From an uncultured Gammaproteobacteria bacterium (GTDB lineage: Bacteria > Patescibacteriota > Patescibacteriia > UBA9934), in contig CAZTKG010000004.1 of the NCBI GenBank assembly GCA_964613815.1, forward strand, positions 25,892 to 89,891: a stretch of 64,000 nt of DNA, written 5' to 3'. The notes under the pieces were generated by a model. It was not told the origin of the DNA. It saw only the letters and a list, made by a program, of their open reading frames with translations, and did no database searches. Positions 16,642-42,238 of the stretch are shown one piece after another. Each line of letters starts with the position of its first letter. Position 1 is the first letter of the stretch. The translations under genes were made by a program, and so were the position numbers.

Positions 16642-17110
16642 AAGCTGAAATCTGGAAAGAAAAACTTCTACCCAGAAACCAACCTACAGACAAAATTATA
16701 TCACACACGCCCCATCAAGCACCGATAACTACACACATTGACAAACAAGCAAAATTATGCCAATATATTTCAGATTCAAACAAAGGAATCTCGGAGCCTA
16801 TCATGCCCGCAAATCTCGAAAACATCTCCATCCGCACACACCATACAGCCGAATTAAACCACAGAGCATTCATTATCATAATGATGGCCATCCTGATGAC
16901 CGCCCTCATCGCACACCCACCGTTCACCGGCAAAGGAATTCCGCTCATGGCATGCGCTGCAATCTGCATCCTGAACTGCCTCAACTACGGATATCACAGA
17001 AGAGAGCTCAAAAAAGCCACCCCGGCCAACCATCCCGTCTAACTCGCCAACCAGCGAGTCATTTTTTTTCAAAACGCTTCTCAACTCTTCCACCCCTCCC
17101 CCTCTCTCTC

Positions 17111-17152
17111 CTTGATACAAAAGTGGTCCGTACGGACCACTTTTGTATCAAG
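17111..17152. repeat. 42-bp perfect palindrome CTTGATACAAAAGTGGTCCGTACGGACCACTTTTGTATCAAG
   Basis: Read directly; lies just 3' of the stop of the minus-strand gene 17172..19859. Confidence 0.9.
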
Positions 17153-17171
17153 CAAAATATCAAAATCCCAA

Positions 17172-19868: not shown

Positions 19869-20861
19869 TTATCGAGATTGAAAAAAACGCACACAAACGA
19901 TCGATCCTCCAAGTAAAACACTAATCAAAAGCAGTACACGCCACGGCACCATCACAATATGAATGGCATCAATCGGCATCACCGCTCCATCAATCGATGT
20001 CCGCAAATCAGGCTTAACACGAAACAGCCCAATCATACCAAGAGAAACTTCTCGCTTCAGCCCATCAAAAAACCCATCAGGACTCCCAGAAGCCTCCCCC
20101 TGCACCCATTGTAATCCGAATTCCCTCTCACCTCCAGGCAGAACCCGATGCAAATGTGCATTAAATGGAAGCCGCGCCCGTTCCTGACCAAACAAATTCT
20201 CTATCACAATAGTCCCATAAGGCTGCAAAACCTGCTCCCCAGAATTCCTCACATCAAGCAAAATATCAACCGGCTTCACAGATGTCATCACAGGCGTTGC
20301 CAAAAACTCCGTCACACCATACCCCTGCACCAACCGTTCCCCATCAATCGTCAAAAACACAAGCGGCATCACCCCAGACTGCACCGTCACTCCCCCTCCT
20401 CGTTCTTCAAGCTCCTCCACAATCTTCACCCCAAATGAATAAACCCCAGGCTGAACCCCCTCAAAAGGCCCCATCGCAACCAAAACCTCCGTTTCCTCAC
20501 CAGGGTCAAGAAAAAAAGCTTCAGTAGAAATCAAAATCTGCTCCAAAACCCCCTCCGGAAACTCCCCATCCATCAAATCCCCCCCAGCCAAAACCTCCGC
20601 AGCATCCACCGGCACCAAAGAAACCGTATAAACCCGAGAATACACAGAATTATTAGCAACAAAAAAAGACCGCTCCGCCCCAAACCCCTCTTCAACCTCC
20701 ACATCCTCCACAAGCGGAGATGCCGTAACAGCAAAACAAACATTAAAACCTGCAAAAAACAAAAAACAACTACCAAGCATCACAACAATCCCCAAACCAA
20801 ATCGCTCCAAAAAAACTGACATAAACATGCAAAAAGTATAACACGCTACGCTCAAACACAT
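19869..20861 (-). CDS. hypothetical exported protein with C-terminal TM anchor (start uncertain)
   Basis: Hydrophobic N-terminus and C-terminal helix followed by a basic tail. Sits in the surface-protein block. Confidence 0.45.
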   Translation of the reverse strand: MCLSVACYTFCMFMSVFLERFGLGIVVMLGSCFLFFAGFNVCFAVTASPLVEDVEVEEGFGAERSFFVANNSVYSRVYTVSLVPVDAAEVLAGGDLMDGEFPEGVLEQILISTEAFFLDPGEETEVLVAMGPFEGVQPGVYSFGVKIVEELEERGGGVTVQSGVMPLVFLTIDGERLVQGYGVTEFLATPVMTSVKPVDILLDVRNSGEQVLQPYGTIVIENLFGQERARLPFNAHLHRVLPGGEREFGLQWVQGEASGSPDGFFDGLKREVSLGMIGLFRVKPDLRTSIDGAVMPIDAIHIVMVPWRVLLLISVLLGGSIVCVRFFQSR

Positions 20862-20902
20862 TGATACAAAAATGGTCCGTACGGATCACGCCTCATACAA
20901 AG
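20861..20902. repeat. degenerate copy of the 42-48 bp palindrome
   Basis: TTGATACAAAAATGGTCCGTACGGATCACG... keeps the left half-site; the right half is decayed. Confidence 0.6.
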
Positions 20903-20956
20903 AGAAACTTTTATAAAAAACAAAAACGGTAAATATTGGCAAATATTATGAATATC

Positions 20957-21004
20957 CTGCCTGATACAAAAGTGGTCCGTACGGACCACTTTTGTATCAG
21001 GCAG
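20957..21004. repeat. 48-bp perfect palindrome CTGCCTGATACAAAAGTGGTCCGTACGGACCACTTTTGTATCAGGCAG
   Basis: Read directly; shares the same 38-bp core as 17111-17152. Confidence 0.9.
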
Positions 21005-22740: not shown

Positions 22741-22770
22741 CCTGTACAAGACCAGAAACGACGCCGAGCT

Positions 22771-22892
22771 CCCAGAGAGGGTAAGTCGCTCTGTGGTGGT
22801 GATTCTTTTTAGAAACCGCAGTAAAACGTACTCATAGTACGTAGTCGAGGATTTCTAAAAAAATCGCCGCCACAGAGTGACTTGGCCCTCTC
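22771..22892 (-). ncRNA. 122-nt imperfect long hairpin in the tRNA-Arg(CCT) 3' trailer (copy 1 of 2)
   Basis: Gapless alignment to 37341-37462 with compensatory changes on both arms (details in findings). Confidence 0.55.
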
Positions 22893-22969
22893 TGGAGGCC
22901 TCGAAGGGGGTCGAACCCTTAACCTTGTCCTTAGGACGGACCTGCTCTATCCAATTGAGCTACGAGGCC
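22893..22969 (-). tRNA. tRNA-Arg (anticodon CCT), CCA encoded
   Basis: Manual fold: acceptor GGCCTCG/CGAGGCC, D-arm GCTC-AATTGGATA-GAGC, anticodon loop GTCCTAA, T-arm AAGGG-TTCGACC-CCCTT, discriminator T then CCA. Confidence 0.85.
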
Positions 22970-26080: not shown

Positions 26081-26146
26081 GCCAAGATGGTACCAAAACC
26101 AAGCCCCTCTTGACAAAACAACCAAAAAAACCTAAATTAACCCCTT

Positions 26147-26397
26147 CCATTTGCTCGTTCGACACCAGTCAACATCTGCGGACGCCCCGTCCCCAGAGAC
26201 GCCACCACCCAAAGCGTCAATCCGCTCTGCATATGCAACGATTGCTCAGATTTCATCAGAAATCAGAAAATCGCTGCATATGCACGACGTTCGTTTGCCC
26301 GAACCCCTCTTTCGGCACATACCTGCATCAAGATTCCCGCAAACGCACTCTAGATCAAACGAAATGGAACCCACCCCTAATAAAGGGGTAATTTTTA
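26147..26397 (+). ncRNA. small structured RNA unit A1 (family defined in findings)
   Basis: TTGACA 26110-15, 17 nt, TAAATT. 5' CCATTTGCTCGTT pairs with 3' AACGAAATGG (26358-67). Internal hairpin cTGC-GGACG-CCCC-GTCC-CCAGA. Terminator CCCCT..AGGGG plus T-run. Confidence 0.5.
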
Positions 26398-26433
26398 TTG
26401 ACAAATACAACCAAAACATCTAGAGTCCACTTT

Positions 26434-26648
26434 CCATTTGCTCGTTAGTCATCCGCTAACACTGCGGGCGCCTCGCCCCCAGAAAAAAGCATACCTGACA
26501 CGACCAGGCACGCTGCAAATATGCGACTTTTACCCGCTTCGCTCCAGTAAAAGTCGCATATTTGCCACTCAAGCTGCGCTCGAAGCCATCACGCAACTGT
26601 CATCAAGCGAAATGGAACTCACCCCCTAACGAAGGGGTATTTCTTTTT
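26434..26648 (+). ncRNA. small structured RNA unit A2
   Basis: TTGACA 26398-403, 17 nt, TAGAGT. 5' CCATTTGCTCGTT / 3' GCGAAATGG. Internal hairpin GGGCG-CCTC-GCCC and a perfect 19-bp stem GCAAATATGCGACTTTTAC/GTAAAAGTCGCATATTTGC. Terminator CCCCT-AACGA-AGGGG plus T-run. Confidence 0.5.
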
Positions 26649-26682
26649 GACAAATCCCCAAATTCCGCTAACCTAACCCCAT

Positions 26683-26937
26683 CAACTTGCTAGACGTCCT
26701 CGTCAACCTGCCCGCACCCCGCGGCCAGACCCAGACACACCCCCAAAGACCCCGAGTACAGAAAATCTCGCCTTAACGGAAATTTTGCTCCCAAACTCGC
26801 AAAATTATCCAACCAGTCAAGATTTTCTGCCGCTCCCGAGAGAAATCCGCCACTCGCCACAAGCGGCTTCACTCCGATTTCTCACGCTCCAAGTACCAAG
26901 CGAAGTTGACCCTCCCCGCCCAAAAGGCGGTTTTTCT
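26683..26937 (+). ncRNA. small structured RNA unit A3
   Basis: TTGACA 26647-52, TAACCT 26669-74. 5' CAACTTGCTAGACG / 3' AAGCGAAGTTG. Internal hairpin CCGCA-CCCC-GCGG-CCAGA. Terminator CCGCC-CAAAA-GGCGG plus T-run. Confidence 0.5.
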
Positions 26938-26941
26938 GTCC

Positions 26942-27024
26942 CATCTATCGCTCCGGCTCCGCCGAGCCCTATCGTCGAGCTCAGCTCGACCCTATCGTTC
27001 AGCTTTGCTGAATTCTATCACTCA
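26942..27024 (+). repeat. iteron-like direct repeats of (C/T)CTATCG spaced 23-28 bp, containing GGCTCCGCCGAGC
   Basis: Four CTATC(G/A) repeats. The same module recurs at 40001-40078 and partly at 40582-40640. Confidence 0.5.
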
Positions 27025-27035
27025 TGCTTAAAAGC

Positions 27036-27142
27036 TTGACAAATCACCCAAATTCCGCTAATCTCCCCCTCTGAATCAATCCCGATTCACCCCCGCTCCT
27101 TTCGCTTCGAATTGAGTACCACCCCGCGCAAAAGAGGCTATC
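27036..27142 (+). promoter_or_regulatory. promoter and leader of the RT gene
   Basis: TTGACAAATCACCCAAATTCCGCTAATCT is nearly identical to the unit A3 promoter TTGACAAATCCCCAAATTCCGCTAACCT. AAAGAGG RBS before ATG 27143. Confidence 0.55.
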
Positions 27143-28408
27143 ATGGCCAAGAAACCCCAAAAGGGACCCAAGCGCCCAGGTCAAAAAGGCTACAAGGACA
27201 ACAATTTCCAGTTGATCCTCGCCCTCCCGGCCCACTTCGCAGAGATGCTCCGCGAACTGCTTCACATCCATCAGTCCGACTGGGAAGTCCTCATGGACAT
27301 CCTCCGGCAAGGACACGAAGCCGCCTACAGAGAAGAAAAACGCCGAAAGGGCAACGGTGGCACACGCTACATCCATGCCCCCTGCGACACCCTCAAGGAC
27401 GTGCAGCGCAAGATCCTCAACCAGTTCCTCTCCCAGATCCCGATCCACTTCATTCGCTGGGGAGGCCGGAAGGGCAGCTCTGTCGTGAAGGCCGTCGACA
27501 ACGCCATCGGCGCTCGATACGCCTTCAGCATCGACATCATGAACGCCTTCCCGTCGGTCTTCCGAAGCCGAGTCCAGGCAGCCTTCATCGAGCCCGTACG
27601 CCACATGCTCCGCATGTACAAAGGTCTCGAGATATCCGAAGACGACATCAAAACCCTGGCCTACGCCCTCGCCGACCTCTGCATCCTCCACGACCGCCTC
27701 CCGCAGGGTCCACCTTCTTCGCCGCGAATCCTCGACATCGTCTCCTTCGGCATGGACCGCGACATCGGAGCCCTCGTCGGAGAGTACCGCACCCCCATCA
27801 ACAAGATGCATGCGTTCATCTGGGTCGACGACATCAACATCGTCAGCCACGAACCCATCCCAAAAATCGTGCAGGAAAAGCTGAAGGCAATCATCAGAAA
27901 GTACAAGTTCATGCCACACCACCGTCCTGGCAAGTGCGACTACTTCTCTGTCGAAACCGGCAGGTTCCCAATCCTCCTCGGGATCAACATCTTCACCGGA
28001 ACCCTCGCGCCCAAAACGGTCAGACGCTTCCGCAGCAAGCTCAACTGGCTTCTCAAGCAGAACACCTGGGGCGTCAAACAACTCCAAACGGCAGCCGGCA
28101 TCGTTGCCTACCTCGACCAGATCTACCCATCAACCGGTCGTCGTCGCAAGCGTCTTCCTTCAGCTCTCCGAGTCCTCGTCCCCCGCACTCGCGCCCGCAT
28201 CAAGGCCGAACGCGCCGGCGACCCGGTGACCATCAACATCACCGAAGTCGTCGAAGAGCTCCTCGCCGAAAAAGAAGAAAAAAACGGTCAGACCGGACGC
28301 AAGATCATCGACACCATCGTCCACGACGCCTCCGCAACCGGAGACCCCGACCACGACATCGAGATCCGCATCGCACTCGCTCAAGAGGCGCTCGCCGAAG
28401 CAAGCTGA
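27143..28408 (+). CDS. reverse transcriptase (stand-alone, retron-like fingers/palm; unusual V-D-D motif C)
   Basis: G-G-T-R-Y-I-H-A-P-C-D-T-L-K-D-V-Q-R-K-I-L (retron-like motifs 1-2), F-S-I-D-I-M-N-A-F-P-S-V (motif A), L-P-Q-G-P-P-S-S-P-R-I-L (motif B'), F-I-W-V-D-D-I-N-I-V (motif C), L-L-G-I-N-I-F-T-G-T downstream. Confidence 0.8.
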   Translation: MAKKPQKGPKRPGQKGYKDNNFQLILALPAHFAEMLRELLHIHQSDWEVLMDILRQGHEAAYREEKRRKGNGGTRYIHAPCDTLKDVQRKILNQFLSQIPIHFIRWGGRKGSSVVKAVDNAIGARYAFSIDIMNAFPSVFRSRVQAAFIEPVRHMLRMYKGLEISEDDIKTLAYALADLCILHDRLPQGPPSSPRILDIVSFGMDRDIGALVGEYRTPINKMHAFIWVDDINIVSHEPIPKIVQEKLKAIIRKYKFMPHHRPGKCDYFSVETGRFPILLGINIFTGTLAPKTVRRFRSKLNWLLKQNTWGVKQLQTAAGIVAYLDQIYPSTGRRRKRLPSALRVLVPRTRARIKAERAGDPVTINITEVVEELLAEKEEKNGQTGRKIIDTIVHDASATGDPDHDIEIRIALAQEALAEAS

Positions 28409-28823
28409 TCTCCTCAATCTCACCCTGTCGCTCGCCTACCTACCGAAAGGTAGAAGCAGCGACAGGGGATCCTATCTCGCCCTTCACCCAAAAGTGGAGA
28501 TCGAGTACGATCGAAACCTTCCCTGCAGTTTGCTTGAAAATCGGTCACCAAAAGACATTACGCGCCTAGCGTCATGCCGACCAATCACCCAAGACGACTA
28601 AGCCTCGCTGACAAAGACAAGCTTTGTCAGACGCGGTCAGGTACTCCGGTGAACAATGGGGGACGCGAGCTTCCCAATACGCCCACCTCCATACCTGACA
28701 GCGCTACCTCGTCAGTCGAAACTGCACCTTCCGGAAGTCCAACCAACTTCCGGGTTCTTATATCGCCCTTCTCCAAGCAGAAGGTCGGCAAAGGAACACC
28801 GAACATTTCATCAGGAGCACCCA

Positions 28824-29936
28824 ATGCTACAAGTCCGCGCCGTCGAAACAAACGGCAACATCACCTGGGAATTCCTCGACGAATCCCAAAGACGCTACTA
28901 CTTCGCCGAACTCGACGAACCATCCCATGACGCAGCCCCCACCCCAGATCACATCCCAAAACAACGATTCAACGACGGCGACATCTGGAACGCCGAGATC
29001 GTCCGCGCTGTAAGAGAAGGTCGCGACCGAGTCGCCTACATCCGACTCATCTCCCAAGTCCGAGACCTCTCACCCTGGGAATCCATCACCGAACTCCCTG
29101 GCTTCTGGACCGACCCAGACATGCTCAAGTCCGTCCTCGCTCTCTTCCATCTCAAAGCCTGCGTCCTCCTCAAAGGCTCAAAGGGAAGAGGAAAAACGAC
29201 CTTCATCTTCATGGTCGCCGAGCAGCTCGGCTGGCAGCACCCGTGCAAAGTCGACATGGCCGCCATCAAACGCGCCACCGACATCGCCGGCCAAAACGCC
29301 GCCAAGAAGGGAAGTACCCTCTTCCAGGGCTCCGAACTGTTCCACTTCCTCAAGCGGGCAGAAGCCGCCCACAAAGCAGGCCTCCTAGACACCTTCCCAG
29401 TCCTCCTCGACGAAATCGGCCGCGTCCACGCCAAAGCAACCGGCGCGCTCCACGGCCTGTTCGACGACACCCGCATGATCACGCTCACGACCGCAGAAGG
29501 CAGCATCACCTTCCGCATCCCCCCAAACGTCGTCATGATCGGCACGGCCAATATGGGATACGCCGGCAACTTCGAAGTCGACGAGGCACTCAAAGATCGC
29601 TTCATCGCGATCAACATGCCTCGCATCCCCACCGAAGAAGTGGCCAAGATCCTTATCGCAGAAGCCGGCATCACGCAACAACAAGCCCTCGACATCGCCC
29701 GCATGGGAGAAATCCTCGAGGACCTCTCTCGTCACGCCATCAGCTTCGCACCAAGTCTACGCGCACTCAAAGTCCTCGCCCAAATGGTCGCTCTCGGCTT
29801 CAACATGAAACAAGCCGCCTTCACCTGCCTCACCGGCTGGCTCGAAGGTGAGATCACCGACCACAGCTCAGAAGCCGGCAAAGCCTGGGTCGCCATCACC
29901 ACAAAGGCATCCGTCGACCCCGACGACGAAGAATAA
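28824..29936 (+). CDS. MoxR-like AAA+ ATPase (AAA_5/CbbQ/NorQ-like)
   Basis: CAGGAGCACCCA-ATG at 28824. Walker A L-L-K-G-S-K-G-R-G-K-T-T, Walker B V-L-L-D-E-I-G, sensor-1 I-G-T-A-N-M, Arg-finger region A-L-K-D-R-F. The upstream part of the 426-aa track ORF lacks an RBS. Confidence 0.75.
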   Translation: MLQVRAVETNGNITWEFLDESQRRYYFAELDEPSHDAAPTPDHIPKQRFNDGDIWNAEIVRAVREGRDRVAYIRLISQVRDLSPWESITELPGFWTDPDMLKSVLALFHLKACVLLKGSKGRGKTTFIFMVAEQLGWQHPCKVDMAAIKRATDIAGQNAAKKGSTLFQGSELFHFLKRAEAAHKAGLLDTFPVLLDEIGRVHAKATGALHGLFDDTRMITLTTAEGSITFRIPPNVVMIGTANMGYAGNFEVDEALKDRFIAINMPRIPTEEVAKILIAEAGITQQQALDIARMGEILEDLSRHAISFAPSLRALKVLAQMVALGFNMKQAAFTCLTGWLEGEITDHSSEAGKAWVAITTKASVDPDDEE

Positions 29937-29984
29937 CCCAACCTCCAGCAGAATCTCTGCTGGCTCATATCCTGAGCTCGATAC

Positions 29985-31440
29985 ACCACATCGAACCCAG
30001 GCCACGAGCAAATTGCTAGAACCTCTTCAAGAGACGGTCGCTAACCTTCTTGCGCCTCGCATCAAGTAGACCATTCACCCAACTCGACCAGCCCGGTCCA
30101 TCACGCCACTCTCAAGCGACGTGATCCCCGGATCGATACCATCCTACGTCAGGTATCGATTTCGACACCTCAGATTTCAATTACACACTTCCGGCTTCCA
30201 GCCTCCGTCGCGAAATCAAAATCAGAGGTGTCAAAACTATCGATCTCATTCGAATTTGCTTTTCACATCTTAACGGTTTGCTAGACTCCCAAAAGGGAAG
30301 GCCCCTCATCCGCACGCGCTTCGCGTCCGGTAGGCCAGTCACCCCTCGTGACCACGCATGACAGAAATCTGTCATGTCCTGTCATGTTGCTACTCACTCA
30401 TCGTTGAATGAGCAACATAATAACTTCCTCGCTCGCCACAACATGACAGAACCGAGCACGACAAGCGAAACCGTCCTAAACCACGCAACCTAAACACCGT
30501 GGTTTACCACGTCGCTCGCGCAGCGACGTGGCTCTTATCCCGCCCCTGAACCTCTCAGAGTCGGGAACCGAGTAAACTGCTAGAACCTCTCATCGGAGAG
30601 TCGGTCATTCATCTTCTTGCACCCAGCATTAAGTAGACCATTCACCCAGCTCGTCAAGCCCGGCCTCATCACGTCGCTCAAGAGCAACGCGACGAGGTCA
30701 TAACGTCACGACGTCACGATACCGTTACGGTAACGTCACGGTAACGTCACGTCATCAGAGGCCGTCGCCGAGTAACATCAACGCGCCGTAACGTCACCGT
30801 GACGTTACCGCAACGGCACTGTCGAGCTCTTACGAGTTTACTTCCTAGCGACTTGCTAGACACCCCGAAAGGGAAGGCCCCCTCATCCGCACGCGCCTCG
30901 CGTCCGGTAGGCCAGTCACCCCCAGAGGCCATGCCAGGGACAAACAAGTATGTCCCTGCTGGTCCCCTATCGCATTCGTCAGATGCATGGCGAACACGCT
31001 ATCACATCATGACTCACCGCGACAGGGACAAGCCAAGGCCATCCAGCGAAGTCGTTCCACCGTCGCCCACGCGACACCCTCCGGAGAATTCTCCGGGCTC
31101 TTATTCCGCCTCTGACCCAATCAGAGACGGAACATGGGCAAACTGCTAGAACCTTCTCGCAAGAGAAACGGCCATCAATCTTTCTGCGCCGTGCACCAAG
31201 TAGGCCATTCACCCGACTCGACCAACCCGGTCCTCCGGAAATGTCGGGAAACCCGATGCATTTTTACACGAGCTCGCGCGATATCGCGCGACCTTCCCTC
31301 CACTCGTTCGCGCGATATCGCGCGATCTAGCGCAAACAACGGGTCCTCACGAGTTTGCCACGCCAGAGGCCAAGCCTCTGGATTCTTCTATCGAGCTCCT
31401 CCCCGAGAAGCCCGACAAAAGAATCCCTAGCCCTTTCAAA
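29985..31440 (+). repeat. structured non-coding spacer: three diverged tandem composite units (modules E-C-var-D-var) plus perfect palindromes
   Basis: C modules 30010-30099, 30574-30665, 31139-31234 begin AAA(T/C)TGCTAGAACC. D modules 30278-30345 and 30852-30922 begin TTGCTAGAC. E modules 30530-30568 and 31095-31133. Palindromes GTAACGTCAC-c-GTGACGTTAC at 30788-30808 and TCGCGCGATATCGCGCGA at 31274-31291 and 31308-31325. Confidence 0.7.
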
Positions 31441-31451
31441 AGGAACCCAAA

Positions 31452-33269
31452 ATGCCCCTCTCTCCAACCGAAATCGCCCGCTCCCGCGCCATCCTCACCG
31501 CCATCTTCCCAGAACTCGTGAGCATCCTCCTCGCCATCACCGGAAGACCCGTCAAACTTGTCTGGGACCCCAACATCAGCACCGCAGCAACAGACTGCAA
31601 AGCAATTGTCTGGGCCAGCCCAAATCCATTCCTAAACGGATTCCCCGACGTTGGCAGAGGATCCACCATTCACGAAGGCGGCCACATCAAATGGTCACGC
31701 TTCGGCTCCCGTCTCATGCGCCAAGCCAAAGAAGAGGGAGGAGAAGGCCTCAGCCACCTCCTCAACCTCATCATGGACCGCCGAGACGACACCCTGAACG
31801 CAGACCATAACCCCGGCATAGCAACCTGCCTCCGCGCCCGCCTCGCCTACCTCTGCACCATGCAACACCGCCTCATGATGAAAGCCGCGGTGGACAGAGT
31901 CATGGCTCGCGAAGAAAAAAAACGATCATCGCCGTCACCACGCGCGATCAGAATCGCCGAACTTCGCAAAAAAAGAGACATGGACCCACGCGAAGTAGAC
32001 ACCCCTCGCCTCGAAGGCCGCGAAGCCGAAGACAAAATCACCAAACTCCTCTCCGGCGTAAAGCCAAAGGACGCTTGGGAAGACTTCTTCTTTGCCTGCA
32101 AGTGGCACAAAGGCGCCAGAACCCGCCGAGGCCGTAAAGCCATCAACATCATCGGCACCCAGCGCCTCCTCAAGGCAACCCCAGGTCAACTCCTCGGCCT
32201 CGCCAAACGCGTCCACACCATCCTCGGTGACCGCCCAAGCGAGCAAAAAACTCCACCACCCAAAGGATTCCAAAACCTCATCACAATCGCTCGCGCGATC
32301 GAACGAGGCGACAAAGAATCCATGGCAGCCCTACGCGCCATCGACCCCGACATGCACGCCGCAGTCATCCTGCTGCACACCATGGACCCAGGCATCGCCA
32401 AACTGCTCGGCAAGATGGCCAAACAGCATACGGCAAAGTCACGCGCAACCGGCATGGAGAAACTCAAAAAAATTCTCCAAACCGGATTCCGCCACCCAGG
32501 CCCAATCTCCATCGGAGACCCCGGAAAGGTCAAGGTCATAGAGCTTCCTCACAACGAAATTCACCGAGCAACGCACCGAGCTGTTCTCGCCGAAGTCGCA
32601 CATCTCAAAGACCAACTCGTCCGCACTCTCAGAAAACTCGACTCTCCAAGTGAATTCACGCTCTACGCCCAAGACGAAGGCGACGAACTCGACTTTGACG
32701 AAGTGGCCTCCATGGCATGCGGACTCGGCGGCAACTGGCAAGAAACCGTCATAGAACGCGACATCGACGCCCTCATCGCCATCGCAGCAGATATCAGCGG
32801 CTCCATGGGAGGAGAAAAACTCAGAGCGCTCCGAAGACTTCACGCCCTCCTCACAGAAGGCATCGAAGTTCTCGGCGACAGCGCAGAAGGCTACGCCTGG
32901 GCGTATCACTCACAGACCATCTTCGACCTCGGTCGCACCGCCCCAACAAGCGCCTTCCACACGCTCAAAGCAGACTACGGCAACTCTGACACCACCATGC
33001 TCACCATCGCCGGCACCCGCATGGCCATGTCCAAACGTCGCCAAAAAATCCTCTTCGTCATCACCGACAACGGCCCAGACAACATCCAGACAGCAGGGGA
33101 GAGAGCAAGACAACTCCTCGCAAGAGGCGTCCTCGTCATCCACATCATGGTAGACGTCCACGGCATCCCCGACATCTACCCAATCGAACTCCCATACGTC
33201 TCCATAGACGACCTCATAAACGGCGAGTTCAACAAACTCCTCACCCTCATCTTCAAACACTTGAAGTAA
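31452..33269 (+). CDS. two-domain protein: N-terminal HExxH (zincin-like) region plus C-terminal von Willebrand factor A domain
   Basis: I-H-E-G-G-H-I-K-W near the N-terminus. vWA MIDAS D-I-S-G-S-M-G-G-E then F-V-I-T-D-N-G. Terminator ATCCACGCACAACGTGGAT+T7 at 33270-33297. Confidence 0.7.
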   Translation: MPLSPTEIARSRAILTAIFPELVSILLAITGRPVKLVWDPNISTAATDCKAIVWASPNPFLNGFPDVGRGSTIHEGGHIKWSRFGSRLMRQAKEEGGEGLSHLLNLIMDRRDDTLNADHNPGIATCLRARLAYLCTMQHRLMMKAAVDRVMAREEKKRSSPSPRAIRIAELRKKRDMDPREVDTPRLEGREAEDKITKLLSGVKPKDAWEDFFFACKWHKGARTRRGRKAINIIGTQRLLKATPGQLLGLAKRVHTILGDRPSEQKTPPPKGFQNLITIARAIERGDKESMAALRAIDPDMHAAVILLHTMDPGIAKLLGKMAKQHTAKSRATGMEKLKKILQTGFRHPGPISIGDPGKVKVIELPHNEIHRATHRAVLAEVAHLKDQLVRTLRKLDSPSEFTLYAQDEGDELDFDEVASMACGLGGNWQETVIERDIDALIAIAADISGSMGGEKLRALRRLHALLTEGIEVLGDSAEGYAWAYHSQTIFDLGRTAPTSAFHTLKADYGNSDTTMLTIAGTRMAMSKRRQKILFVITDNGPDNIQTAGERARQLLARGVLVIHIMVDVHGIPDIYPIELPYVSIDDLINGEFNKLLTLIFKHLK

Positions 33270-33413
33270 TCCACGCACAACGTGGATCTTTTTTTAAACC
33301 AGCGAACAAATATCCATTCCCATTTCGACCAACGCGGAGAAATCTCTCTCAATAACAACATATAAATTAAACCAATCACTTGACAAAACAACCAAACCAT
33401 GCTAAATTCCCTC

Positions 33414-33650
33414 AGTGCTACGTGGCCCGACCACACCTCTTCTCGCGCCTCGCGACAAGTTTACGCACAACCTAAGCGGACCAAGCCTGGCGCTTGCGCG
33501 TCTCATGAGTTTGTCGCACTACGTCGCGACCGCACTTCATGACGCCCTTCGCCCATCATTGCGGACAGCTCTTATCCCTACGGGGACCTGTCCGCAACGT
33601 ACGCTCAATCTCAACGCCCGCCGTGCATGCACGGCGGGCGCCTTTGATTT
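33414..33650 (+). ncRNA. small structured RNA unit F (same family, variant ends)
   Basis: TTGACA 33379-84, 17 nt, TAAATT 33402-07. Internal hairpin cTTCTCGCG-CCTC-GCGAcAAG matching the family motif. Terminator CGCCCGCCGTGCATGCACGGCGGGCG plus T-rich tail. Confidence 0.5.
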
Positions 33651-37273: not shown

Positions 37274-37340
37274 ATGTTTTTTTCTTACTCTTCGAATGAG
37301 CCGTGCCAACAACCTAACCAAACTCACGCGTGAGAGGCCT

Positions 37341-37462
37341 GCCAGAAGGGGTAAGTTGCTGTGTGGTGGTGATTCTTTTGTACAACCGCAGTAAGACGTA
37401 CACATAGTACGTAGTCGAGGATTGTACAAAAAATCTCCGCCACACAGCAACTTGGCCCCTTC
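37341..37462 (-). ncRNA. 122-nt long hairpin in the tRNA-Arg(TCT) 3' trailer (copy 2 of 2)
   Basis: Collinear with 22771-22892. Arms differ from copy 1 at paired positions. Confidence 0.55.
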
Positions 37463-37539
37463 TGGTGCACCTGGCAGGACTTGAACCTGCAACCTTGAGG
37501 TTAGAACCCTCCTGCTCTATCCAATTGAGCTACAGGTGC
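37463..37539 (-). tRNA. tRNA-Arg (anticodon TCT), CCA encoded
   Basis: Manual fold: acceptor GCACCTG/CAGGTGC, anticodon loop GTTCTAA, T-arm GCAGG-TTCAAGT-CCTGC, discriminator A, CCA. Confidence 0.85.
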
Positions 37540-37662: not shown

Positions 37663-38595
37663 CTATTCCTCCTTTCCATGATGCTTCTGATGCACCTCTT
37701 TCAAACGCTTATCCGTCACATGCGTGTAAACCTGCGTCGTCGTAATGGACTCATGCCCAAGCATGCTCTGCACACTCCGAATGTCCGCCCCGCTCCGCAA
37801 TAAATCCGTCGCAAATGTGTGCCGAATCGTATGCGGCGTAATCCGTTTCGCAATTCCTGCACTTCTAGCATACTTCTCAATCGTCCGCTGAATCGACCGA
37901 GGAGTAAGCGCTCCAGGTTCCCCGCGCCCAGCCTTAGCCCGATCATGACTCACAAATAAATGAGGCGACAAATCCTGCCGAGCTTCAACATAATCACGCA
38001 CCGCATCCTTAGCAGTTTCGCTCATAAACACCACACGATGCTTACTACCCTTGCCCTTAACCGTAAACTCATCCCTCTTCAAATTTAAATCATCAATCAA
38101 AAGCTTAGAAAGCTCACTAACACGAAGCCCCGTACTAAAAAGCATCTCCAAAATAGCCGAATCCCGAAGCCCAATGATCCCCGGCGTCTTATCAACCGCC
38201 AAAAACATCTCCTTCAAATCCTCTGGCTCCAAAAACTCCACCTTCCGAGTCTCATGTTTCGCAAGTTCGATCTTCTCCGGACTAAGCGTCTTCACATCAA
38301 TCTTGTGCAAATACTTCAAAAAAGACCGTAAAGCAATCAAATGATAATTCTGCGTCGTCTTTTTCAAATTCACATCATCCCGCCCCTCAACCTCACGATT
38401 CAAAAACAACCGATATTGCCGAACCATCTCCAAATCAATCTTATCCGGGGCAGGATACTTCGCCCATTTCCCAAACCGACTCAAATAAAAGTCATAATTC
38501 TGAATAGTATTCGCACTTCGACCACGCTCAACCTCCAAATACTCCAAAAATTGCGTAATAAGCTCCTGCAAACGACTCTTTTTTCCCATAAACAA
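37663..38595 (-). CDS. xerC: tyrosine site-specific recombinase XerC/XerD family
   Basis: R...H-T-I-R-H-T-F-A-T, L-G-H-E-S-I-T-T-T-Q-V-Y-T-H-V catalytic tyrosine region, N-terminal SAM-like domain. Confidence 0.8.
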   Translation of the reverse strand: MFMGKKSRLQELITQFLEYLEVERGRSANTIQNYDFYLSRFGKWAKYPAPDKIDLEMVRQYRLFLNREVEGRDDVNLKKTTQNYHLIALRSFLKYLHKIDVKTLSPEKIELAKHETRKVEFLEPEDLKEMFLAVDKTPGIIGLRDSAILEMLFSTGLRVSELSKLLIDDLNLKRDEFTVKGKGSKHRVVFMSETAKDAVRDYVEARQDLSPHLFVSHDRAKAGRGEPGALTPRSIQRTIEKYARSAGIAKRITPHTIRHTFATDLLRSGADIRSVQSMLGHESITTTQVYTHVTDKRLKEVHQKHHGKEE

Positions 38596-39036
38596 TAATC
38601 AAAACTTCAATACCAACATTATACGACACAAAACTACCACCTCCTAATTCCCATCCTGAGGCGCGCCAGCCCTAGCGCGCCGGAAGGATCTCACAGCAAA
38701 ACCATCGAATATTAGCCAAATAAGTCAAAAACACCCAACATCTGCCAATCATCACTTGACAAAAACCAAAAAACAAGCTAGTCTATAGAGTCAGTATCAA
38801 AATTCCTCACAAGCAAGCTAGAGAAAAATCCCATGCATGTTTTTCTCCAGCTCACTCATCAAAAGGGAATATCAATATTCCCATCCCCTCAAAGGAAATC
38901 ATTTCGAATGATGTCTTCTAAGGGGATCACGTTCGACACCAACAACGGGCCCGTCCAGCCCAAAAAAACAAAATCACCGCAAGGAGGTGACAGGACAAGC
39001 ACGACGAATTTACATTCCACAACCCAAGGAGTAGGA

Positions 39037-39408
39037 ATGTCTCGTCGCGATGCCCGGTGCCAGGGCCAATGGCACACAATCACCGTCAACGTGATCAACA
39101 TCCCACGCGAGGGAGGGAGAATGATCGTTACGCAAGAGCAGAGGTCAATTTGCACCTGCTGGCTCTGCGAAGACCATTTCTACCTCACCGGATGTCCAAT
39201 CCTTCGTCCAACCATGCATGCCAAGAAGAAGCCGTTCACCACGGCCGAATCCAAAGCGCGCATCGGAGACGAGAACGGATTCATCCCAACCCCGCAAACC
39301 CCCCGCGTCCGAACGCCAAGCGCAGAGCTCAAACTCAAGCGCAGGCGCAAAGAACGCGGATCAGATCGCCGCTATCACCGCCAGTGGCTCCTCTCCCAGC
39401 GAGACTAG
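39037..39408 (+). CDS. small Cys-rich protein (possible zinc ribbon); start may instead be ATG ~38908
   Basis: AGGAG 6 nt before ATG 39037. C-x-G-x-W-H...C-T-C-W-L-C-E-D-H...C-P cysteines. Consensus promoter TTGACAAAAACCAAAAAA at ~38757 with a ~250-nt leader. Confidence 0.4.
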   Translation: MSRRDARCQGQWHTITVNVINIPREGGRMIVTQEQRSICTCWLCEDHFYLTGCPILRPTMHAKKKPFTTAESKARIGDENGFIPTPQTPRVRTPSAELKLKRRRKERGSDRRYHRQWLLSQRD

Positions 39409-39483
39409 CAGCGATCCGTCCCCTCGGCTAACACCGAGGGGTTTCGCTTTACAAAAAACCAAAAAATCGCTAATATCATCACC

Positions 39484-39744
39484 TCGATTTGCTAGATCAA
39501 AAAACCTGGTCCCTTCCCGCGCCCCGTGGCAAGACCCTCAAACACACCAATCGACCCCGACATAGACATTCACGAGACCAAAACTCTCGACAAGCTCAAC
39601 TTTTGGTCCCTAAAATCTCTATTCAAATCTCACTGTGACGAGCTCTCACGCCGTGACCACGGCACTCGAGATCGTGCAAACGATATTTGACTCTGGTCAA
39701 CAAGCGAAATCGAGCTTCAACCCTCACAAGGTTGCTTTTTTTTG
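39484..39744 (+). ncRNA. small structured RNA unit B1
   Basis: TTTACA 39448-53, 17 nt, TAATAT. 5' TCGATTTGCTAGATC / 3' AAGCGAAATCGA (39702-13). Internal hairpin cTTCCCGCG-CCC-CGTGG-CAAGA. Terminator CAACC-CTCAC-AAGGTTG + T8. Confidence 0.5.
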
Positions 39745-39766
39745 ATCGAAATGCTAATTTTGCCCT

Positions 39767-40000
39767 TCGATTTGCTAACCGCCGCTGGCCCCGGCACTCT
39801 CGTATCGACATACTAGATAAATCGATATGCCTCCCCGCGCCCCGCGGCGAGAAAAGCGAACACCCTACCAGATCAGGGGAAAGTTCTTCGATCCTTTCCG
39901 AAACCGTTCCGCGATGCTGACCACCTACGGCACTCACCAGCACAGAACGTTCCCAAGCCTCAAGCGAAATCGAGCATCAACCCAATCGGGTTGCTTTTTT
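39767..40000 (+). ncRNA. small structured RNA unit B2 (weak promoter)
   Basis: 5' TCGATTTGCTAACC / 3' AAGCGAAATCGA (39962-73). Internal hairpin cTCCCCGCG-CCC-CGCGG-CGAGA. Terminator CAACCCAATCGGGTTG+T6. Confidence 0.45.
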
Positions 40001-40137
40001 CTATCGCCCGGCTCCGCCGCGCCCCTGTCGTCGAACTCAACTCGACCCTATCGTTCAGCCTCTGAACCCTATCGCCCAAAACCTCCATCATCAACATCAC
40101 CATTGACGCATTTCACCATTACTGCTAAATTCACCCC

Positions 40138-40559
40138 TCGATTTGCTAGATCGACACCCTTCGATCCCTCTCCGCGCCTCGCGGCGAGACCCCGAAATAC
40201 ACGGACAGACCAAACCCCGTACACAAAAGGACAAACTCTACGCGTTAGTCCTTTCATGTACGGCCCGAGTCGCGCACAGACCTATCGTTACCGATTCTAC
40301 GGTCAATGCGCGCCTTCCGGTACTAGTATCAAGCGAAATCGAGCCCTTACAGCTTGTTAGATGTAAACCGCATCACCTCCCGCGCCCCGCGGCAGGACCA
40401 GCGCACACACCGCGCGACCAGGATTGCCCATAAATGGGAAAGTCCCGAAACTGACGAGTTTATGTCACCCGCCTTCGGCAAACTCCAGAAACTCGATCAG
40501 TTTCGGCACTCAAGCCCTTCATCGAAGCTGTACCCCCTCGCAAATGCGAGGATTTTTAA
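40138..40559 (+). ncRNA. small structured RNA unit B3 plus a degenerate promoter-less half (B3b)
   Basis: TTGACG 40103-08, 17 nt, TAAATT. 5' TCGATTTGCTAGATCGAC, internal cTCTCCGCG-CCTC-GCGG-CGAGA, 3' AAGCGAAATCGA 40331-42. Second internal hairpin cTCCCGCG-CCC-CGCGG-CAGGA at ~40375. Terminator CCTCGCAAATGCGAGG+ATTTTT at 40535-59. Confidence 0.45.
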
Positions 40560-40682
40560 TATGCCGGGGGCATATTAACCCTTCGTAGCTCGGCTCCGCC
40601 GAGCGAAGAACGGGTAATCATCGCAAAACTCTATCACCCCCTCCATTGACACGTAACCCAATCCACTCCAAACTAAATCCAT

Positions 40683-40960
40683 TCGATTTGCTCTCAGTTG
40701 CTAACTGCAACCGCCACGCTTCTTAGTCCGGAATAAGCAGCGATCGTCCTCGCGCCCCGCGAAGACAGGCACCTACACAAAACGCCAATGCCGAAAGCAT
40801 TGCTCCAATGCGCGCATTGGTTCAATTATTTCGCACAAACGAACACTCAACTGACAGAATCGCATGCCACAAAACCATACGACACCTGTCAGTCAAGCGT
40901 CAGTTTGACCAAGGGCAACAAGCGAAATCGAACCTCAACCCCAACGGGTTGACTTTTTTT
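40683..40960 (+). ncRNA. small structured RNA unit B4
   Basis: TTGACA 40646-51 with a weak -10. 5' TCGATTTGCTCTC, internal gTCCTCGCG-CCC-CGCGA-AGACA, 3' AAGCGAAATCGA 40920-31. Terminator CAACCCCAACGGGTTG+T7. Confidence 0.45.
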
Positions 40961-40983
40961 CACCAAACCGCTATATTCACCTC

Positions 40984-41264
40984 TCGATTTGCTCCCCCGT
41001 TGCTAGCTACAACCGCTACGCCACTCAGTCTAGAATGAGTAGCAAAAGATCCTCGCGCACTGCGAAGACAGAGCAACCCACATCAAAAGTCCATGGCACT
41101 AAATCCGTGTAGCCAATTCTTGTCTCAACTGATTTAGTTGCTTTCTACGCCCGAATGAATGCATCAGTCGCTCAAATACCGCCAAATGCATTTACATCCC
41201 AGTCGCAGAAAGCACAGGACCAACAAGCGAAATCGAGCCTCAGTCCTCACGGGCTATTTTTTCT
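40984..41264 (+). ncRNA. small structured RNA unit B5
   Basis: TTGACT 40949-54, 17 nt, TATATT. 5' TCGATTTGCTCCC, internal TCCTCGCGC-ACT-GCGAAGACA, 3' AAGCGAAATCGA 41224-35. T-run at 41258-64. Confidence 0.45.
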
Positions 41265-41299
41265 TGACAAAAAACCAAAAAAACACTAACCTAACCTCT

Positions 41300-41551
41300 T
41301 CGATTTGCTAGATCGACCCTCCTCGATCCCTTCCCGCGCCCCGCGGCAAGACCCCGAGCTGGACCCCAAGTCCATACCTGACTAAGCCTGACATTCCTAC
41401 GTCTGTCAGCTTTGTCAGTAACCCGTCAGCAGATAAGTCGCTCACTATGCGCAGAATATTTGCACACCAATCGCGACTGCATACTACTGACGGCTTACCT
41501 CCGAACAACAAGCGAAATCGAACTCTCCCGCCAAAAACGGGATCTTTTTTT
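41300..41551 (+). ncRNA. small structured RNA unit B6
   Basis: TTGACAAAAAACCAAAAAAACAC-TAACCT promoter 41264-92. 5' TCGATTTGCTAGATCGACC, internal cTTCCCGCG-CCC-CGCGG-CAAGA, 3' AAGCGAAATCGA 41510-21. Terminator CCCGCCAAAAACGGG+T7. Confidence 0.5.
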
Positions 41552-41609
41552 CAAAACAAATCACCCCACCCCATTGACAAAACACAAAAACCATACTATC
41601 TTAACCACC

Positions 41610-41850
41610 TCGATTTGCTAGATCGACCACCTCGATCACTCCCTGCGCCCCGCAGCGAGACCCCGAGCCAGACACGAAGTCCGTACCTGACCGTCGCGGA
41701 CAACCGCTAAGCGTCCGTCCACGCCCTTCAAGTCCCGTCAATGGACTGCCGGCTCACCGAGCAATAAATACGCCCGCTCACGACAAGTCCATTGACCGTC
41801 CTCAAGGGCAACAAGCGAAATCGAACTCTCCGCCACCGGCGAGTTTTTTT
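41610..41850 (+). ncRNA. small structured RNA unit B7
   Basis: TTGACA 41574-79, 17 nt, TATCTT. 5' TCGATTTGCTAGATCGACC, internal cTCCCTGCG-CCC-CGCAG-CGAGA, 3' AAGCGAAATCGA 41813-24. T7 run. Confidence 0.5.
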
Positions 41851-41945
41851 ATCCCATAAACCATCTTTCACCTCTTAAAAGCATTTTTGTTATTCATTGA
41901 CAAATACAAACAATTAAACTAGTATTAGCAATTGTTCATTCATCA

Positions 41946-42238
41946 CGACTTGCTAGATCGTCTCAACCGATCCCTTCCCGCGCTACGCGGCAAGAATAAC
42001 GGATACACACAACGTCCATAGGCGTCCGTCCTCTCATCGACTATTCAATCGAGCAAGTAAACCATAACTTGCTCTCAAAAAATATTCGCTCGAGGAGGAC
42101 TTAAGCGGACGGCTGGGGCTGCCCTTCTGTCCGTACAGGACAGAGGCTGTCCTTATGTAAGGACAGAAGGTTTGCCCCCTCCTGCTTATTCCCTATCATT
42201 CGAAGTCGTGCCGTCCGCCAATACTGGCGGATTTTTAA
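41946..42238 (+). ncRNA. small structured RNA unit B8 (variant terminal helix CGACTT/AAGTCG)
   Basis: TTGACA 41897-902, 17 nt, TAGTAT. 5' CGACTTGCTAGATCG, internal cTTCCCGCG-CTA-CGCGG-CAAGA, 3' CGAAGTCG 42201-08. Two tandem hairpins TCTGTCC-GTACA-GGACAGA and CTGTCCTTA-TG-TAAGGACAG. Terminator CCGCCAATACTGGCGG+ATTTTT. Confidence 0.45.

Follow-up and report, generated by a model that had tools for sequence, protein, structure and literature searches.

A retron-like reverse transcriptase, a MoxR-class ATPase and a zincin-vWA protein form a conserved cassette with arrays of structured RNAs in Patescibacteria

The stretch of DNA analysed here, called the window, comprises 64,000 nucleotides (nt) of contig CAZTKG010000004.1 (assembly GCA_964613815.1, positions 25,892 to 89,891 of the forward strand), from an uncultured bacterium placed by GTDB in the Patescibacteriota. 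It carries three consecutive genes on the + strand, encoding a reverse transcriptase (RT), a MoxR-class AAA+ ATPase and a zincin-vWA protein, together with structured units of one noncoding RNA (ncRNA) family. The original prediction, made from the sequence alone, had described a same-strand gene cluster lying within arrays of units that resemble retron ncRNAs. Both parts of that description hold: each motif it quoted is found in the translations of the open reading frames (ORFs), and 19 structured units occupy the spacers and flanks of the genes. The RT-ATPase-vWA cassette is one conserved module, and its ncRNA units have a retron-like architecture supported by covariation. The operon is laid out as follows.

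27036-27142, + strand: RT promoter and 5′ untranslated region, read from the sequence (TTGACA at 27036-27041, TAATCT at 27059-27064, ribosome-binding site AAGAGG)
27143-28408, + strand: retron-type RT, 421 amino acids (aa)
28824-29936, + strand: MoxR-class AAA+ ATPase, 370 aa from the ATG at 28824
31452-33269, + strand: zincin-vWA protein, 605 aa
33269-33297, + strand: intrinsic terminator of the RT-ATPase-vWA operon

The promoter (27036-27064) is a near-copy of that of the ncRNA unit A3 (26647-26674), a resemblance that had been predicted and that inspection of the sequence bears out. The ATPase ORF begins at 28656, but alignments with homologues begin at the internal ATG at 28824, and the protein is therefore taken as 370 aa and the two spacers as 415 nt (RT-ATPase) and 1515 nt (ATPase-vWA). 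The lengths first given for these spacers, 415 nt and about 1.5 kb, and their structured character stand, to which we add that the msr/msd-like ncRNA family of the flanking arrays is present in the spacers too, a trait that holds across the cassette family.

The RT ORF (27143-28408) contains TRYIHAPCDTLKDVQRKI, FSIDIMNAFPSV, LPQGPPSSP and WVDD, with motif A at D131 and WVDD as motif C. In hidden Markov model (HMM) searches the protein matches Pfam RVT_1, but retron RT models match it far better, namely RT_III-A, RT_VI and RT_II-A of PADLOC at about 1e-26 and retron_St85 of NCBIfam at 8e-26. A profile of the RT family searched against the PDB finds only retron RTs (Ec86 at 1e-19, followed by Ec67, Kva2, Ec83 and Ec78). 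Retron RTs are the only significant matches in all three resources, in agreement with the retron-like character originally proposed, and these model and structure matches, with scores below the curated family cut-offs, place the window RT in the retron/retron-like clade. A group II intron origin was considered and rejected. The Asp of motif A and the first Asp of motif C do not vary in the family, whose fingers and palm motifs are also well preserved; motif C reads [WY]xD[DN], and WVDD of the window RT was counted as a form of YxDD. Two further hallmarks of retron RTs are NAxxH in region X, where the His is most conserved, and VTG in RT7, where the Gly is most conserved (PMC7736814). Among 10 aligned family RTs, nine have the His, seven the full NAxxH and two SAxxH, and the His is kept in most RTs of related loci, so that this hallmark belongs to the family and not to the window copy. 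At the VTG site the Gly is invariant in the family, most relatives having VTG and some VLG, ALG or VNG. The D-N form of motif C (ADN or TDN) is seen in the RTs of loci L004, L022, L023, L024 and L025, where NAxxH, VTG and the ncRNA arrays are retained.

Annotation of the RT gene is itself irregular: in three of the four public records of the contig a spurious ORF on the opposite strand (27044-28087, - strand) is annotated in its place, which is why RT searches return no identical protein. The strand asymmetry of the window is extreme along its whole length (1-64000; GC skew -0.32, AT skew +0.25), and at third codon positions GC skew runs from -0.53 to -0.68 in + strand genes and from +0.83 to +0.91 in - strand genes; such a skew is absent from the related loci of the candidate phyla radiation (CPR; |GC skew| <=0.2). 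This skewed composition is the probable cause of the spurious ORF calls over the RT gene.

The second gene (ORF 28656-29936) encodes Walker A GSKGRGKTT and Walker B LLDE. HMM matches to AAA_5 (2.5e-9) and to the CbbQ_C lid (21.6 bits, cut-off 20.6), together with best PDB matches to NorQ and CbbQ and further matches to the AAA modules of midasin, support the assignment of its product to the MoxR class, as predicted, and to the NorQ/CbbQ/midasin-like ATPases. The first 110 residues or so (28824-29150, residues 1-110) form a conserved extension that matches no family and is absent from NorQ and CbbQ; it could be a substrate- or nucleic-acid-binding domain.

The third protein (605 aa, 31452-33269) contains HEGGH and DISGSM and has no match in the Pfam, NCBIfam or PADLOC HMM libraries. 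Its N-domain (residues 1 to about 350) has a zincin fold with an invariant H74-E75-x-x-H78, and its C-domain (about 430-605) is a NorD/CobT-like vWA domain with a complete metal ion-dependent adhesion site (MIDAS; D447-x-S449-x-S451, T514, D539), whose closest structural likeness is to NorD in the NorQD complex and which also resembles the MIDAS domains of Rea1. Motifs and fold matches here agree with the HExxH-vWA composition first proposed. Among the fold neighbours of the zincin domain are three DNA-dependent proteases (Spartan, Wss1 and ArdC) as well as the proteases IrrE and CapP; scores are similar for general zincins (minigluzincins, M32, M48), so the matches indicate no specific relationship to Spartan/IrrE-type proteases. 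The original prediction saw no obvious effector gene, and on this point we differ, since the invariant HExxH zincin domain fused to vWA is a candidate effector.

The gene order RT, ATPase, vWA on one strand recurs in all related loci whose length allows the three genes to be seen, in a survey that took in four loci (L001, L004, L012 and L015), 14 GTDB species loci (Uhr-, Falkow-, Yanofsky- and Andersenbacteria and Parcubacteria) and metagenome contigs. The three genes are thus conserved together, with order and strand retained, and all named carriers are Patescibacteria. Among 5.8 billion proteins the RT has only nine related clusters. The vWA family is small, a search over 1.84 billion giving 43 representatives (E<=1e-30), and a scan of the IMG/VR viral contigs gave no relative of the vWA protein. 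Spacers range from about 370 to 2400 nt between RT and ATPase and from about 130 to 2850 nt between ATPase and vWA. A sister family (L031 1599-7089; L032 788-7069) retains the same three genes, order and strand, and its loci also carry ncRNA units with the same P1-G-CU ends (P1 being the closing stem described below). The RTs of this family are shorter, with YVDD and VTG in canonical form, and score higher against retron models (RT_XIII, 145 bits), and its vWA-zincin protein has an extra N-terminal CxxC region. In L032 a gene for a bAvd-like four-helix protein lies upstream of the cassette.

The ncRNA units are 190-390 nt long and share one plan, in which a 5′ arm of 7-10 nt is followed by an invariant G, CU(U/A)GA, conserved hairpins, a variable region, in some cases AUCC or AGCG, and a complementary 3′ arm. 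The variable region (80-200 nt) is unique to each unit and forms one or two long hairpins. The window holds 18 canonical units and one variant (E). Six units, C and B1-B5, sit within the operon without individual promoters, B1-B5 representing a duplicated two-unit module. The thirteen others stand alone: A1-A3 just upstream of the operon, E just downstream of it, and D1-D9 at 39.5-42.2 kb. Most of these have a TTGACA-17-TAnnnT promoter, from which transcription is predicted to begin at the 5′ arm, and are closed by an intrinsic terminator directly behind the 3′ arm. The z values below compare folding stability with dinucleotide shuffles.

26110-26395, + strand: stand-alone unit A1; promoter TTGACA-17-TAAATT at 26110-26138, RNA about 26144-26370, terminator 26373-26389 plus T run; P1 TTCCATTT/AAATGGAA, G at 26153, z -7.9
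26398-26646, + strand: stand-alone unit A2; promoter 26398-26426, RNA 26431-26618, terminator 26621-26638; z -6.6
26647-26937, + strand: stand-alone unit A3; TTGACA 26647-26652, TAACCT 26669-26674, RNA 26680-26911, terminator 26916-26930; P1 TCAACTT/AAGTTGA, z -6.6
28523-28727, + strand: unit C in the RT-ATPase spacer; P1 TGCAGTTT/AAACTGCA, G at 28532, z -3.5; 5′ motif GCTTGA, the same in other genomes
30006-30261, + strand: unit B1 in the ATPase-vWA spacer
30271-30476, + strand: unit B2 in the ATPase-vWA spacer; variable region with CATGACAG/CTGTCATG repeats
30570-30843, + strand: unit B3 in the ATPase-vWA spacer; long hairpin of GTAACGTCACG repeats
30846-31058, + strand: unit B4 in the ATPase-vWA spacer
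31136-31360, + strand: unit B5 in the ATPase-vWA spacer; hairpin made of CGCGCGATATCGCGCG repeated twice
33380-33650, + strand: stand-alone variant unit E; promoter 33380-33408, D-type hairpin CTTCTCGCGCCTCGCGACAAG, terminator 33615-33640; shifted closing stem, z -4.4
39448-42232, + strand: D array of nine stand-alone units
39482-39715, 39765-39975 and 40136-40344, + strand: units D1, D2 and D3
40347-40534, 40681-40933 and 40982-41238, + strand: units D4, D5 and D6
41298-41523, 41608-41826 and 41943-42211, + strand: units D7, D8 and D9

Within the D array, a consensus scan places sigma-70-type promoters upstream of D1, D3, D6, D8 and D9 and terminators after D1, D2, D4, D5, D6, D7 and D9, to which inspection by eye adds a promoter ahead of each of D5 and D7 and a terminator behind D8. 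One promoter serves both D3 and D4, and for D2 there is just a weak promoter-like site.

Several lines of evidence establish the architecture of these units. A strict scan of the window for closing stems returned 23 hits on the + strand versus 2 on the - strand, and the units are therefore well beyond chance. In 22 units from other genomes, RNAalifold recovered the closing stem P1 (the a1/a2 repeats), whose pairs 3-9 are never broken and mostly show double compensatory changes; 11 of the 15 pairs of the P2/P3 core likewise covary in units of other genomes. All 18 canonical window units pair at P1 positions 1-7, using 11 distinct stems next to the invariant G, and P1 covariation together with this G extends over 57 units. 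All 18 are also more stable than their shuffled counterparts (z -2.2 to -8.6). Inverted repeats a1/a2 that close an msr-msd region, with a conserved G beside the 5′ repeat, are a distinguishing feature of retron ncRNAs and are present here; by analogy, that G would be the branching site. A covariance model of the P2/P3 core built from other genomes (R1) and scanned over 324 kb on both strands gave 66 hits at E<0.01. Each of them lies on the gene strand within an RT-ATPase or ATPase-vWA spacer, and there are 1-11 per cassette. The window units have a different covarying hairpin, CUUnCCGCG-CCY-CGCGGnAAG. No variable region of the window units matches another or any other part of the window, and between units only the conserved ends match. 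No Rfam family matches the units at gathering or E-value thresholds; Rfam miRNA-precursor hits to the long hairpin of B3 were dismissed as chance matches.

Further sequence features recur in and around the units. In alignment A4 (units of L001-L029) the conserved core reads P2-(3-5 nt)-GA-P3 ... P3-N-GA-G-P2, an arrangement of C-stem, bulge and tandem G.A pairs that may resemble a kink-turn, a typical protein-binding motif. GGCT(T/C)CGCC recurs in hairpin loops of units from many other genomes. The variable hairpins of B2, B3, B5 and D9 (41943-42211, CTGTCC/GGACAG) are built of unit-specific repeats or palindromes, and akin to these are the CGTCACG/CGTTACG repeats in units of L004, L021, L022 and L027. 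Between units, a repeated spacer element with GGCTCCGCC lies at 26940-27005 and 40003-40065, and also at 40575-40600.

Taken together, the locus probably represents a retron-type system of new architecture, so far found in Patescibacteria only, in which one retron-clade RT serves many msr/msd-like ncRNAs and is partnered by a MoxR AAA+ ATPase and a NorD-like vWA adaptor fused to a putative zincin metallopeptidase; we hold this interpretation with somewhat more belief than doubt. Reverse transcription is proposed by analogy with retrons, and a role in defence is likewise a proposal. In such a system, the 5′ and 3′ ends of each ncRNA pair through P1 (a1/a2), a step that the covariation demonstrates. 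The RT would then recognise the conserved 5′ hairpins and prime cDNA synthesis from the 2′-OH of the invariant G, as in retrons, copying the unit-specific hairpin region into a small DNA (multicopy single-stranded DNA, msDNA). The resulting RT-msDNA particles may restrain the MoxR/vWA-zincin machine or serve as its ligands. If factors of a phage or another invader were to bind certain DNA hairpins, or to modify or degrade them, the ATPase-vWA motor would be released together with the protease, a target would be cleaved or remodelled, and growth would stop (abortive infection). On this interpretation, many different hairpins would give a wider range of triggers. That one RT could serve many templates is feasible, since a single retron RT serves engineered tandem msr-msd arrays (PMC10370050). 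A more elaborate and more doubtful proposal, which we put forward tentatively, is that of a natural multiplexed retron, in which up to about 19 separately transcribed templates would yield a library of DNA hairpins, each with a short palindrome of its own, acting as decoys or sensors for DNA-binding or -modifying proteins of invaders, with the signal relayed to the MoxR-vWA motor and a DNA-responsive zincin protease.

A number of observations weigh against the retron-type interpretation. The retron_St85 score of the RT (91 bits) falls far under the curated cut-off of 235 bits. The window RT has KAVDN where retrons have NAxxH, the His being lost, and LLG in place of VTG, and in 5 of the 16 distinct family RTs surveyed motif C is D-N and not D-D. 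A D-N motif C would cripple catalysis in other RTs. These departures also qualify the original prediction, which had singled out motif C of the window RT as its unusual trait: the WVDD reading is confirmed, but the lost His, LLG and the D-N relatives are odder. As to the RNAs, they lie downstream of the RT or in trans and not upstream as in classical retrons. Model R1 hits none of the window units, nor those of the sister family, and the homology of window units to the others therefore rests on the P1-G-CU(U/A)GA ends, on position and on a P2 stem of B type. The B and D arrays gave no blastn match among 50,697 phage genomes. The cassette sits amid housekeeping genes (holA, polA) with no obvious defence island, and its msDNA, transcripts and phenotype are predictions from sequence.

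Comparison with described retrons (types I-XIII, e.g., Ec86, Ec78 and Kva2; Mestre et al., 2020, PMC7736814) shows how far the likeness goes. The RT clade, the three-part organisation of RT, ncRNA and accessory proteins, and the ncRNA anatomy are all shared, the last comprising terminal inverted repeats (a1/a2), a conserved G adjoining the 5′ arm, 5′ hairpins that are short and conserved, and one long hairpin that varies. Whereas those retrons have a single contiguous, usually upstream ncRNA, here the units lie downstream, between accessory genes or in separate transcription units, and number 1-11 per cassette and 19 in the window. The window RT also differs in lacking the NAxxH His, some relatives in having D-N in motif C, and the system in being restricted to Patescibacteria. 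A MoxR ATPase with a vWA-zincin module is not among the 13 described types, and neither AAA nor vWA terms occur in PMC7736814. Because two retron features, the NAxxH His and a single contiguous upstream ncRNA, are lacking in the window copy and this accessory module is absent from the 13 types, the system is not a member of any described retron type. It is best read as a variant of the retron, new in its RT-MoxR-vWA-zincin module and in its diverged ncRNA arrays. The engineered 'multitrons' (PMC10370050) likewise have tandem msr-msd units served by one RT, but are artificial, whereas the array here is natural, with strongly diverged units, many of which have their own promoter and terminator.

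The protein partners have relatives of their own. Like the pairs NorQ-NorD, CbbQ-CbbO, CobS-CobT and the modules of Rea1/midasin, the cassette combines an AAA_5 ATPase bearing a CbbQ_C lid with a large protein that ends in a vWA domain with a complete MIDAS. It departs from them in the zincin HExxH N-domain of the vWA protein, itself scoring similarly with Spartan/SprT, Wss1, ArdC, IrrE/PprI, CapP and general zincins (minigluzincins, M32, M48), and in the constant linkage of the pair to an RT and structured RNAs. The client genes of known pairs (NOR, Rubisco, CobN chelatase) were found neither in the window nor in related loci. Also comparable are the vWA-MoxR-VMAP conflict systems with diversity-generating retroelements (DGRs) (Kaur et al., 2020, PMC7159879), which also join a MoxR-vWA couple to an RT in a probable conflict context; this is the only work we found that links MoxR-vWA to RTs, and it concerns DGRs. 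In the cassette there is no VMAP gene, only three genes are conserved, the RT is of retron type and no diversified target is present, and the hosts are CPR bacteria with tiny genomes, whereas VMAP systems belong to multicellular bacteria. The combination of RT, MoxR and HExxH-vWA had not been recognised as a characterised system, and it has no match as a characterised retron type or defence RT system in the searchable literature, which does not take in the contents of one preprint of September 2026, where 'ncRNA array' and 'reverse transcriptase' are mentioned and MoxR, vWA, AAA+ and Patescibacteria are not.

The strongest alternative, although an unlikely one, is that the RT is mainly an RNA-binding scaffold that makes no cDNA, and that the cassette encodes a ribonucleoprotein machine whose ATPase-protease is regulated or targeted by the structured RNAs. 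The same D-N motifs (5 of 16 RTs) argue for it, as do the loss from the window RT of the NAxxH His and of the VT of VTG, and RNA cores that are strongly conserved and may hold kink-turn-like GA/GA protein-binding motifs. It is opposed by the invariant motif A Asp and first motif C Asp, by the preserved fingers and palm motifs, by the canonical YVDD of the sister family, and by the build of the RNAs, which have what a retron template needs, namely a closing stem, the invariant G beside it and a long hairpin of variable sequence.

Retron RTs remain bound to their product. This, together with the many templates per RT (1-11 per cassette, 19 in the window), suggests a second and quite improbable alternative, in which the MoxR-vWA-zincin pair would be an assembly or recycling machine for RT-RNA/DNA particles, stripping or loading the RT for its many templates, with the effector elsewhere or absent. 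The characterised MoxR-vWA pairs (NorQD, CbbQO, Rea1) are all remodelling chaperones, and NorQ and NorD are the closest structures to the proteins studied here. Such a role would leave the invariant HExxH zincin domain unexplained, and neither classical retrons nor engineered arrays need a helper of this kind.

Far less credible is the view that the RT mobilises a selfish, non-autonomous retroelement of which the units are copies, the arrays reflecting its spread. Copy number does differ widely between genomes, L027 contains near-identical neighbouring copies, and genes for Xer-like integrases and transposases lie near some cassettes. The units, however, occur only beside the cassette and always on the gene strand, and are highly diverged, with unique variable regions and conserved structure, on which grounds the mobile-element reading was rejected. 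A comparison for array polymorphism showed the contig to be 99.995-100% identical in four other metagenome records. On reading the units, neither poly-A tracts nor target duplications were noticed, although no systematic search was made. [quoted passage not shown]

The housekeeping genes that neighbour the cassette are rmuC, rpsT, holA, polA, a NUDIX gene, tRNA genes and rpsO, and the PolA encoded beside the cassette is 52-57% identical to PolA of Patescibacteria and Candidatus Uhrbacteria. Between the cassette and the D array lie a gene of the Xer/phage-integrase family and an adjoining small ORF (37663-38595, - strand, and 38751-39408, + strand), the latter encoding a Cys-rich protein of 166-191 aa that belongs to no family and is preceded by a promoter of the same TTGACAAAA type. 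A 195-nt direct repeat with 78% identity (22769-22963 and 37339-37533) spans tRNA-Arg genes (CCT, TCT) and their upstream flanks. A 47-nt palindromic element, CTGATACAAAAGTGGTCCGTACGGACCACTTTTGTATCAGGCA, occurs in three copies at gene ends (17108-17154, 20857-20903 and 20957-21003) and is probably a bidirectional terminator or an element resembling repetitive extragenic palindromes.

Retrons are known as systems of one RT, one ncRNA and one effector. If the RNAs of the cassette are reverse-transcribed, this would be the first natural multiplexed msDNA production known to us, and it would bring a new class of retron effector and a model from nature for retron editing tools with several donors. 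Should the tentative decoy proposal prove true, CPR bacteria would possess an innate 'DNA decoy array' immune system. If the RNAs are not reverse-transcribed, the cassette would represent a new RT-derived ribonucleoprotein machine. Either way, it offers a new, testable client for MoxR-vWA biology.

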